44,613 bases of DNA from a virus (taxonomy: Duplodnaviria > Caudoviricetes). The notes under the pieces were generated by a model. That model searched no databases and was not told the origin of the DNA. It saw only the letters and a list, made by a program, of their open reading frames with translations. Below are positions 25,352-39,958 of this stretch, piece after piece. The stretch is from the IMG/VR virus record IMGVR_UViG_3300048893_000087, positions 1 to 44,613 of that record, one strand, 5' to 3'. The translations under genes and the position numbers were made by a program. Each line of letters opens with the position of its first letter. Position 1 is the first letter of the stretch.

Positions 25352-25758
25352 GCTGCCACCGCCCGCGCTGCCGGTACCAGCCGACGCGCCATGCTCGCGA
25401 TCCGCGCGCGCTCTTGAGGCGTCACGATCTTGTCGCGCTTGGCCTTCGCGATTTCGTGAACGATGCCGGAAGCCTCAACCTCGAGCTCGTCAATGTCGCC
25501 GTCGTCAGTCTCGTTCGTGCCGACGTGCTTTCCCCAAGGATCTAGCAGCATAGAAGACAAATCATCCGGAAGCCGCAGGTCACCGATCGCCCAAAGCGGC
25601 ATCGCAGACCCATCGCGCCATCCCTTGATCGTGCTGGGGGCAATGTCGCGCGTCCGTGCCAGAACGGCGATCGATAGGCCATGTTCATGCTCTGCCAGCC
25701 GAAAAACTTCTCGCTGCAGTGCAACGGAATTTCGCGCATTTCGGGAAAGGTCAGCCAT
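25348..25758 (-). CDS. CII-like phage regulatory protein (putative)
   Basis: HTH-like SIAVLARTRDIAPSTIKGW; C-terminal DKIVTPQER; downstream of cro. Confidence 0.55.
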   Translation of the reverse strand: MADLSRNARNSVALQREVFRLAEHEHGLSIAVLARTRDIAPSTIKGWRDGSAMPLWAIGDLRLPDDLSSMLLDPWGKHVGTNETDDGDIDELEVEASGIVHEIAKAKRDKIVTPQERARIASMARRLVPAARAVAA

Positions 25759-38077: not shown

Positions 38078-38350
38078 TCATTTCGCGCACCCGGTGAGCA
38101 TCGCCTTCATCTCCCTGCCCCACGAACGCAAACGTAGCGCGCTGGCAGACACCGTGTCCAGATCGCGCCGCGCATCACCAGTCAGCTTGCCCGCCACCTT
38201 CTCAGGTTCGGCTGGCAGATCGGCGAGCTTCACGCAGGGGACGGCGACCGGCTTCTCGACGGTCACGGTTCGAATTTCGACGGCTGGCGGGGGAAGTGAT
38301 CCGGCGCATGCGGTGAGCAGCAATGTCGTTGCGATTGTCAGGCGTTTCAT
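38078..38350 (-). CDS. o-spanin (Rz1-like lipoprotein)
   Basis: Lipobox LLLTAC, Pro-rich, PVAVPC; last gene of the lysis cassette. Confidence 0.75.
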   Translation of the reverse strand: MKRLTIATTLLLTACAGSLPPPAVEIRTVTVEKPVAVPCVKLADLPAEPEKVAGKLTGDARRDLDTVSASALRLRSWGREMKAMLTGCAK

Positions 38351-38369
38351 GGTAGAAAATCCCTGTTGA

Positions 38370-38462
38370 GCATAGGGAAAGCGGCGAGGTGCCGCAGCTG
38401 AGGTACGTGCACGGTAACCTCGGTCCTTTGTGGGGATGGTTCGAATCCAGACCTATGCACCA
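38370..38462 (+). ncRNA. Non-canonical tRNA-like element 1 (CCA end, extended anticodon arm, GCA at loop centre)
   Basis: GCATAGG/CCTATGC-A-CCA; GCGGC/GCCGC; GCTGAGG-TAC/GTA-A-CCTCGGT; TGG-TTCGAAT-CCA. Confidence 0.7.
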
Positions 38463-38879
38463 TCACAATTCGCCGCTATGCTTCAAGAACGTCTCCCCAG
38501 GCACGCAAGGACCGTCCTTGGAGCGCGCCACAGCAGCGGAGGCATCCAGCGCCCGCGCCGTGTCGTTCGATGCCCTGGCGGCCTCCTGAGCGGCAATACG
38601 GGCCTGATCTGCTGCCTTGGTCCGGGCGTCGCTGTCAGTGGCGAGCTTGGCGACTGCAGCGCTCTGGTCGTCCAGTGCTGCGGTGAGCTTGTCGATTGAG
38701 GCGACCTGCACCGCGTTCTTTGCGACCTCGCGCTGGTAGCTGGCCGTCGCTGCGTCTGCTGCCTTGTGCCAATGCCGCGCGTCTGCCTTGGCGAACATCA
38801 GCATCACGCCGAGCAGTCCGACAGCCAGGCCGCCGAGCAGCAATTTCCAATTGCTGAGAATGAATGGAATTGCCATCAT
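38463..38879 (-). CDS. i-spanin (Rz-like)
   Basis: N-terminal TM, Ala-rich coiled coil, C-terminal Cys. Confidence 0.75.
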   Translation of the reverse strand: MMAIPFILSNWKLLLGGLAVGLLGVMLMFAKADARHWHKAADAATASYQREVAKNAVQVASIDKLTAALDDQSAAVAKLATDSDARTKAADQARIAAQEAARASNDTARALDASAAVARSKDGPCVPGETFLKHSGEL

Positions 38880-38977
38880 AACCCCTTCTCCTGCCTCGCC
38901 AGCACACAAAGCAGCGCATAGCCGCAGAGTATGAGCGTCGCTGTGTTGATCGCGAATTGCTTGAGGGTGTGGATCAT
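38876..38977 (-). CDS. 33-aa membrane peptide in the lysis cassette
   Basis: MIHTLKQFAINTATLILCGYALLCVLARQEKGL; SD AGGGA; stop overlaps the Rz start. Confidence 0.5.
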   Translation of the reverse strand: MIHTLKQFAINTATLILCGYALLCVLARQEKGL

Positions 38978-38991
38978 GGTATTAGATCCCT

Positions 38992-39110
38992 GTTGATGTG
39001 GCGGCGTGGATGGACACGCACGATGGCTGGCCCGCCTAGGCCGAGAGTTAGGTAAAGGTTCGAATCCTCGAATATCTCGGAGCCGGTGTCGAACCCGGCG
39101 CACGTCAACG
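38992..39110 (+). ncRNA. Non-canonical tRNA-like element 2 with a nested second T-loop hairpin
   Basis: GTTGATGTG/CACGTCAAC; GCGTG/CACGC; CCGAGA/TCTCGG enclosing AGG-TTCGAAT-CCT; GCCGG-TGTCGAAC-CCGGC. Confidence 0.6.
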
Positions 39111-39113
39111 CTT

Positions 39114-39407
39114 TCACGATCCTTGCTCCGTTGCCGGTGTAGCGGTTCCGTCGCGCGTCAGGACCGCGGTCGCGACGCCGGTATCCTTCTGCTTGATCGC
39201 GAACCCACCAGCCGCGAGGACGGCCGAGAAGCCGCCGCCGAACCCGGTTCCATATTCGATCGGCGAGAACTGCTGGCCCTTTGCCCATAGAGCTATACCG
39301 GCGTAGGCGATGAACGAGACGACGAACGACGCTGAGCCGAATACCCAGATCACGCGGCCCGCCTCGAGCTCGCCGCCCACGCCTTTGAGGATGCTGGAAA
39401 TGCTCAT
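39114..39407 (-). CDS. Putative holin
   Basis: Two hydrophobic segments; directly after the endolysin. Confidence 0.6.
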   Translation of the reverse strand: MSISSILKGVGGELEAGRVIWVFGSASFVVSFIAYAGIALWAKGQQFSPIEYGTGFGGGFSAVLAAGGFAIKQKDTGVATAVLTRDGTATPATEQGS

Positions 39408-39958
39408 GACCAACCACCATCACGTAGAGCGCGCTCAAATGCCTGCGCGTAATCCTCGATCAGATCGGCCTTGTCGTGCCCGTTGATGATCGTCCGTGCG
39501 TTCATGTAATGCTCGCGATCGGCGACCCCTGACATGGGCAAGACAGCCGACAGCTTGACGCCAGTGAACCAGCCATCGTCCATGCCCTTGCGCATGATCT
39601 GCGCGGCAATCGCGGGCTCCATCGCACGGTCTGCATTGGCGATCAGCGAGCCGCCTAGCTCAAGCTCATCATCGGCGCGCTGGTAATTCTTCTCCCAGGT
39701 GAGCTGCACATAGCCGCGCCCGTACCATGGGTAATAGCGCAGATGCGTCTTGCGCCAGTCCTCGGTCAGCCAGAACGCCTCACGCACCGGCTGCATCGTC
39801 TTCGCCGTCTCATGCCAAGGCGTCGCCAGCATATAGGCCGCATGGGCCAGTGGGGCGCCTGCGCAGGCCGCCAGCACCGTTTCGAAGCCCTGCCGTTGCA
39901 TAACCGACAGGCGACCCAGCTTGGCGCTCACGGTCGCGTAGAAGGCGTCCTTGTTCAT
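39404..39958 (-). CDS. Endolysin, glycoside hydrolase family 19-like
   Basis: AYMLAT.WHETAKTMQPVRE, YGRGYVQLTWEKNY, ARTIING. Confidence 0.85.
   Translation of the reverse strand: MNKDAFYATVSAKLGRLSVMQRQGFETVLAACAGAPLAHAAYMLATPWHETAKTMQPVREAFWLTEDWRKTHLRYYPWYGRGYVQLTWEKNYQRADDELELGGSLIANADRAMEPAIAAQIMRKGMDDGWFTGVKLSAVLPMSGVADREHYMNARTIINGHDKADLIEDYAQAFERALRDGGWS

Follow-up and report, generated by a model that had tools for sequence, protein, structure and literature searches.

What is the function of an RNA gene that has the shape of a tRNA, lacks an anticodon arm, and lies among the lysis genes of a phage? The question is raised by a locus in a phage record of 44.6 kb that is complete and has terminal repeats; all of its 44,613 nucleotides were analysed and are referred to here as the window. 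The genes of the window include those for an integrase, a repressor-like protein, the terminase, the portal and the head. The lysis cassette runs the other way from the element, which is read from the + strand and has a holin-like gene on one side and an Rz-like gene on the other. A sequence-only reading had described it as a 9-bp closing stem, a D-like hairpin and a T-like arm, with the anticodon arm replaced by an insert, and all of the pieces that it described are present at their places on the + strand. The features of the locus, in which the holin and spanin labels are putative and derive from translation and position, are as follows.

38957-38985, + strand: predicted sigma-70-type promoter (-35 TTGCTT at 38957-38962, 17-nt spacer, extended TG, -10 TATTAG at 38980-38985)
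38974-38996, + strand: 23-base promoter/leader block, common to tRNA-like element 1 (38347-38369)
38992-39000 with 39101-39109, + strand: closing stem of 9 bp read from the sequence, one G-U pair included
38992-38994, + strand: 3-base leader, which can pair with 39107-39109 and lengthen the closing stem
38995-39001, + strand: 5′ strand (7 nt) of the acceptor-like stem, placed by descriptor and covariance model; the junction pair is a G-G mismatch
39002-39003, + strand: CG linker, tRNA positions 8-9, placed by descriptor
39004-39019, + strand: D-like hairpin of 5 bp with loop GATGGA, type I (GAWGGA)
39020-39080, + strand: cargo insert of 61 nt, replacing the anticodon and variable arms, unique to the window copy
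39041-39046 with 39075-39080 (span 39041-39080), + strand: cargo helix predicted by folding (z -1.23)
39056-39068, + strand: inner T-loop hairpin borne by the cargo helix, with a stem of just 3 bp
39081-39099, + strand: invariant A and T-like arm (39082-39099; 5 bp, 8-base loop TGTCGAAC)
39100-39107, + strand: 3′ strand of the acceptor-like stem (39100-39106) and the discriminator-position A (39107), with no CCA after it
38463-38879, - strand: putative Rz-like spanin gene, between both tRNA-like elements, with an N-terminal membrane segment and a weak phrog_3774 match
39114-39413, - strand: putative holin-like membrane protein gene beside the endolysin gene, its stop codon 4 bases past the element; no library match
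39404-39958: endolysin, adjoining the holin-like gene

A 113-base stretch of this locus is one copy of a widespread phage family of predicted RNA genes. The folding energy of the window element (z -1.75) was equalled by 10 of 200 shuffles, which makes it weak evidence by itself, and the fold of 38995-39107 has a z of -0.61. Since the folding energy is unremarkable, the case against chance rests on the homologues. The structure is conserved in homologues, and a covariance model, a tool that the sequence-only reading had proposed, built from 70 copies with the window copy left out, scores the window copy at 55.8 bits (E 2.8e-10). Six of the seven pairs of its acceptor-like stem are formed; the seventh, at the junction (39001/39100), brings G opposite G, a mismatch. 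Copies of the type to which it belongs (type I) mostly have G-C at this pair (204 of 231). With this mismatch, the window copy could be decaying.

The family was approached from both of its arms. The exact D-like hairpin is present in an estimated 280 or so IMG/VR stretches, and most of 120 loci with this hairpin carry the conserved T-like arm downstream together with a closing stem. In the reciprocal test, the T arm was the anchor (about 660 viral stretches) and the D stem was not searched for. A D hairpin of the GA...GGA type was found upstream in 96 of 121 viral loci, compared with 28 of 120 cellular-genome loci and nine of 795 random control positions, and the D stems of the T-arm-anchored loci vary in compensatory fashion. 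An early and looser frame parser, positive in 113 of 405 controls, was superseded by a structure descriptor, which identified 210 distinct copies (the window included), none in 1.03 Mb of Markov-shuffled loci and none in 20 shuffled windows. A metagenome scan gave an estimate of about 1500 stretches, with the full frame in 78 of the 118 distinct ones parsed. Overall, 370 distinct copies were parsed. Four of these come from a separate search of cultured phages (Caulobacter DMCA, with the element at about 25554-25687; Pseudanabaena Pan3; Komagataeibacter phiKX1; and Alcaligenes QDWS595). They score 62-75 bits, and the element is unannotated in the records of all four. The covariance model found none in 150 other genomes sampled from one bacterial class, in which about 23 candidates were scored per genome.

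ARAGORN calls no gene at the element of the window, and Rfam, a check that had also been proposed, matches no family there. Across the window and 60 locus scans, Rfam 15 has no match over a frame; its matches fall on neighbouring RNAs. One such neighbour is Proteo-phage-1 RNA (RF03044) in L563 (200-280), which is followed about 210 bases downstream by a type II copy in the same orientation. A BLAST search of the window element against cultured phages returned three trivial matches and no T5-like record. Neither a description of the family nor its motif strings were found in the literature covered, subscription journals and older T5 papers lying outside that coverage. A survey of viral RNAs contains 10,006 candidates [Fremin 2023 (PMC10690425)]; there is no match to the family in its readable supplementary tables, and the family may be among the unnamed candidates in its alignments. 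The family is apparently uncatalogued.

From its 5′ side, the frame runs through a 7-bp acceptor-like stem and a CG linker to the D-like hairpin and the insert; next come an invariant A and a T-like arm, whose loop has 8 bases (consensus TATCAAGC in the family). Closing-stem statistics were taken from 231 type I copies chosen by their D and T motifs, with no criterion for the closing stem: the pairing frequency is 0.93-0.99 over 7 bp, 0.74 at 8 bp, 0.62 at 9 bp and about 0.5 beyond. The 9-bp closing stem that had been read from the sequence is present in the window copy, whereas only 7 bp are strongly selected in the family. A 7-bp acceptor with a 5-bp T stem is the 7/5 geometry of tRNA. In the closing stem, G-U combinations outnumber A-C combinations by 43 to 15; this excess fixes the strand and favours RNA. 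All three helices covary, with two-sided changes at 16 of 17 pairs, a count inflated by the choice of rows for their pairing. The linker is CG in 190 of 210 copies and CA in 17, the descriptor having demanded the C. The T loops are mostly of 8 bases, not the canonical 7. Just 3′ of the stem, G is depleted (0.12 vs 0.32). Among the 231 type I copies, neither the discriminator base nor the 1-72 pair is uniform; a G3-U70 pair is present in one of these and in none of 64 type II copies, and CCA is encoded in three and four, respectively. No synthetase identity is kept, because the discriminator and the 1-72 pair are mixed and G3-U70 and CCA are rare. The D arm resembles that of tRNA-Leu genes in the same loci, which suggests a possible origin for the arm. 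In some copies, the closing stem reaches about 14-24 bp with recurring CATCA/TGATG ends (L014, L041, L044, L053, L058, L077, L164, L334 and others), and several of these long-stem copies have a hairpin with a GAAAGA loop just upstream.

There are two types of elbow in the family. Type II, with the D loop GAAAGCAGA and the T loop NNTAGCGN, is found in about 540 viral stretches; 104 of 119 stretches were parsed, and Rfam has no match over type II frames. When the D and T loops of the 370 copies are compared, type I is combined with type I in 286, type II with type II in 84, and there are no hybrids. A looser scan gave 234 and 68, respectively, again with no hybrids, and 18 copies in which one loop fits neither type. 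A contact between the D and T loops would predict such coupling; shared descent could be the alternative. Elbow mimicry, as proposed from the window alone, is retained in one respect, namely that the D and T loops change together, as the contact would need, but type II alters the elbow bases themselves, which weakens the case for a strict mimic of the elbow.

Several observations were made on individual copies. Some phages have two copies, adjacent or a few kb apart (L033, L054, L153, L171, and L587 with L588), and in L054 a type I-like copy is paired with a type II-like copy. Five type I copies (L019, L023, L079, L110, L119) carry CC in the T loop, which might base-pair with the two Gs of the D loop. 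Just upstream of the type I copy of L018, at about 1450-1480, is a related T-like arm with a 9-base loop, which may represent a third type of frame.

Many copies of the family have their own predicted promoter in register with the stem. In the window, the predicted transcription start is at about 38992; a strict promoter scan called none at the site of the element. The 23-base promoter/leader block has two matches in the window and none in 100 shuffles, and the alignment agrees. Across the family, the -35 peak is 35 nt upstream of the stem (22 of 209 copies), the -10 ends 6-7 nt upstream of the stem (27 of 209 copies), and -10-like words 3-16 bases upstream are present in 55 of 209 copies, compared with 22 in a control interval. 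In a related phage locus (L498), the promoter is in the same register as in the window copy. The description of a conserved, tRNA-shaped element with its own promoter in register and without an anticodon arm is supported.

The block is shared with tRNA-like element 1 (38370-38462, + strand), which lies between the putative Rz-like and Rz1-like (lipobox) spanin genes; these do not overlap and together occupy 38078-38879 on the - strand. Element 1 has a 7-bp acceptor followed by two G-A pairs, a 3-bp T stem, a 12-base loop at the anticodon position and the 3′ end A-CCA. It has a weak match to tRNA-Sec (19.8 bits), its fold has a z of -2.59, it resembles a 9/3 allo-tRNA, and it is not scored by the covariance model of the element under study.

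If the frame is constant, the insert is the opposite. Among the 210 type I copies, its length is 42-207 nt (median 84), and 306 of the 370 inserts, that of the window among them, have no BLAST partner. A search with the cargo of the window gave 10 loci, none within a frame, and no homologue of its inner stems was found, so that these stems are predicted from folding. Among four pairs of copies in which both 100-base flanks are at least 70% identical, one pair has an identical insert and three have unrelated inserts (identity 0.42, 0.28 and 0.24; the baseline for unrelated inserts is 0.42). Exchange of cargo between close relatives is shown at the level of sequence comparison, with a swap count that rests on three pairs. 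Conversely, related inserts occur in unrelated phages, and five clusters of cargos span both types of frame. Inserts of about 145-155 nt in two sets of loci (L231, L408, L579, L649; and L152, L655) have conserved blocks across both frame types; they have no Rfam match where scanned, and are candidates for new RNA motifs.

Some motifs are more frequent in the inserts than expected. GNRA hairpins are present in 66 of 210 inserts, compared with 35.9 in shuffled sequences, 16 on the reverse strand, and 35 of 207 flanks. T-loop hairpins are present in 10 of 210, compared with 0.3 in shuffled sequences (flanks, 15 of 207, tRNA genes included). The sequence-only reading took two T-loop hairpins to be the design of the element; the inner hairpin is instead one type of cargo, that of these 10 inserts. 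The bulged-G motif is modestly enriched (15 vs 7.2) and Shine-Dalgarno-like words are depleted (27 vs 52). The GNRA and T-loop hairpins, the depletion of Shine-Dalgarno-like words and the nested tRNA-like bodies of four loci (see below) were counted as pointing to selection on the cargo at the level of RNA. Enrichment was rejected for CTAG (53 vs 51.5), CsrA-type GGA loops (26 vs 21.5) and K-turn words (66 vs 60.9), and cargos as known ribozymes or riboswitches were rejected, there being no Rfam match. In four loci (L118, L162, L216, L238), the insert contains as its cargo an entire tRNA-like body with an odd anticodon arm, that of L162 being called tRNA-Ser by ARAGORN; another is at 2523-2632 of L365. 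Taken as a whole, the inserts fold no better than the flanking DNA (median z -0.35 vs -0.32). The 306 singletons and the flank-like folding also fit a relaxed drift of the inserts.

The family appears to be an accessory of phages. Only one of 46 loci anchored on the endolysin of the window carries the frame: in this locus (L498), the frame is antisense and downstream of the related endolysin, as in the window, and has a different insert. The endolysin of the window is 46-47% identical to Sinorhizobium and Rhizobium phage proteins, and has no match at E 1e-20 among 401 sampled genomes. Real copies were found in 17 loci from cellular genomes: five of these have lysis or head/packaging genes within 2.5 kb and three more have phage recombination or repressor genes, compared with one of 15 chance-match loci, a control that excludes L242, itself a real copy, and L261, whose status is uncertain. 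Neighbouring genes differ widely, and no constant neighbour indicates a partner. In three phages (L063, L146, L364), Caulobacter phage DMCA among them, a transposase gene adjoins the element. Of 138 long loci, 25 have a tRNA called by ARAGORN, in each case in the orientation of the element, and two copies are within tRNA clusters; these two observations, together with the depletion of G 3′ of the stem, were counted as pointing to treatment of the RNA like that of a tRNA.

What, then, would such an RNA do? The conserved tRNA-shaped frame is probably a stable carrier for exchangeable folded cargo. A more tentative proposal is that the cargo is bait, tying up a host RNA-binding or tRNA-attacking defence protein. 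This guess is made because the distribution is accessory and phage-bound, because the turnover of cargo is rapid and tRNA-like pieces are among the cargos, and because tRNA-cutting defences exist that are countered by phage tRNAs [PMC12445682, PMC13096335]. In the parts of these papers that bear on it, the counter-defence consists of tRNA replaced or supplemented, not of anticodon-less RNAs [PMC12445682, PMC13096335]. In the whole explanation, which is somewhat less likely than not, the RNA would be transcribed from the promoter at 38957-38985 with a start at about 38992, would fold into an L shape that resists nucleases, would have its 3′ trailer trimmed in the manner of a tRNA, and would be neither charged nor used in decoding. 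The cargo would be exchanged by recombination in the two conserved halves of the frame, and might act as a decoy for host defence or RNA-binding proteins, with host defence as the selective pressure.

The main rival, and the reading closest to the idea first put forward from the sequence, is that the frame itself is the effector: an anticodon-less mimic of the elbow and acceptor that binds one conserved factor, of host or phage, with an insert that is largely dispensable. The sequence of the frame is nearly fixed across hosts of several phyla, its loop bases are conserved beyond the needs of pairing, and most inserts are unique and fold like their flanks, all of which a mimic of this kind would explain. 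However, families of cargo persist across unrelated phages and both types of frame, RNA loop motifs are over-represented in the sense strand of the inserts, no insert is shorter than 42 nt in the 210 type I copies despite a scan minimum of 20, and type II frames alter the bases of the D and T loops. An effector frame is therefore considered somewhat unlikely, although it deserves to be taken seriously. A bolder extension of the carrier-and-bait explanation, and an unlikely one, is a modular platform of phages for the display of RNA: a tRNA-derived frame with at least two co-evolved types of elbow, loaded from a library of hundreds of different cargos that recombine, every one of which would inhibit, or serve as a decoy for, a protein of the host that acts in defence or binds RNA. 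If true, this would correspond, at the level of RNA, to the islands of anti-defence genes, and would account for the T5 “stable RNAs of unknown function”.

A sequence that is hypervariable within a constant frame, with a promoter of its own, also resembles a guide RNA, and the cargo could act as an antisense or guide that pairs with host or phage mRNAs from within a stabilising frame. This is improbable: the longest matches of inserts to their own loci (140 loci) are no longer than those of shuffled inserts, the longest match of the window insert to the rest of its own phage is 11 bases, as in shuffles, and E 0.17 was the limit of what any of three inserts reached in a search of its host genome, although pairing by a short seed would escape such tests. 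More doubtful still is an action in cis on the lysis cassette, either through an antisense RNA to holin and endolysin made from the promoter, or as a signal for processing or pausing. The element of the window points into the holin-like gene with no terminator called on the + strand, and several copies are near lysis or terminase genes (L018, L039, L041, L259, L268, L498), but the orientations relative to neighbours are about even (39, 37, 31 and 28 of 140), the neighbours are varied, some copies are in tRNA clusters, and 45 of the 46 related endolysin loci are without the element. An interrupted tRNA, or a relative of tmRNA or Y RNA, that splicing or charging would turn into a functional adaptor has in its favour the 7/5 geometry and the D arm like that of tRNA-Leu genes, but is already largely refuted and has the slightest chance of all, as the ends of the inserts form no anticodon-like stem (40 vs 52 shuffled) and have no conserved bases, the discriminator and 1-72 pair are mixed, G3-U70 (1/231) and CCA (3/231) are rare, the inserts have no excess of ORFs (80 vs 73.5), and the YrlA motif is found in 0 of 210 copies.

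Under the carrier-and-bait explanation, the cargos would constitute an untapped catalogue of RNA inhibitors, and the frame a natural tRNA scaffold for expression. In any event, a large family has been missed by ARAGORN and Rfam and is unannotated in four cultured phages; the two coupled types of elbow and the cargos that cross between them are new here. Because the constant frame is separable from the movable cargo, swap experiments can ask directly about function.

Comparison with known systems begins with tRNA itself, an identity that was rejected: the 7/5 geometry is present, but there is no anticodon stem with a 7-base loop and no canonical T loop. CCA is not encoded in the window copy and rarely so in the family, and might be added after transcription. 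Engineered tRNA scaffolds carry a foreign RNA in the anticodon arm of a tRNA for stability. The family differs from these in being natural, in having remodelled D and T loops, and in having neither a stub of the anticodon stem nor CCA. In tmRNA, the acceptor and T arm surround a large insert that replaces the anticodon arm. Unlike tmRNA, the family has a full D stem and lacks G3-U70, CCA and a tag frame (the inserts have no excess of ORFs and no sequence common to all), and neither ARAGORN nor Rfam calls one. The identities of tmRNA and Y RNA, offered as parallels by the sequence-only reading, were both rejected, since the defining features of each are lacking: the Ala identity pair and CCA for the former, the Ro60 motif for the latter.

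The YrlA group of bacterial and phage Y RNAs is non-decoding and keeps D-like and T-like arms [Chen et al. 2014, PMC4201824, in the part consulted]. The Ro60-binding motif given there, GNCGAAN0-1G, is found near the 5′ end in none of the 210 copies and nowhere in the window copy, and the acceptor of the family joins the ends of the RNA, unlike the YrlA Y RNA described there [PMC4201824]. The statement that the genome has no Ro60 gene held: there is no Ro60/TROVE match in the complete phage genome of the window, and the Ro60 neighbour of YrlA was not found beside the element. None of 273 neighbouring ORFs was named as Ro60 in a PHROGs scan, and TROVE has weak partial matches in two of five host genomes, far from the element. 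Allo-tRNAs, with 8/4 or 9/3 branches, occur in phages and mobile DNA, have a long D stem and a short D loop, and in some cases are not used in translation, according to the portion of Mukai et al. drawn on here [PMC5389517]. The allo-tRNAs described there retain two arms that the family lacks, the anticodon arm and a long variable one, and the family differs also in its 7/5 geometry [PMC5389517].

From its sequence and predicted arrangement, a nearer parallel than tmRNA or Y RNA is RNA2 of phage T5 (NC_005859, 32959-33083), annotated as a “tRNA-like stable RNA with unknown functions”. Phage stable RNAs of this tRNA-like kind carry no annotated function, which is part of the interest of the family. 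RNA2 has its parts in the order seen in the family: the acceptor-like stem and CG linker come first, the D-like hairpin (5 bp, GA...GGA loop) follows, and the insert precedes an A and the T arm. Its insert holds a second T-loop hairpin, and it is without CCA. T4 rnaC and rnaD and the other stable RNAs of T5 have no score with the family model. RNA2 itself scores 22 bits and two relatives score 21.8 and 27.2, compared with 55-75 for true members. RNA2 differs from the family in its T loop, which is the canonical one of 7 bases, and in its D loop, which is longer. The RNA2 insert is not visibly swapped but conserved among T5-like phages (coverage of the query is 80% or more in 417 records), and RNA2 sits in the tRNA cluster of a lytic phage.
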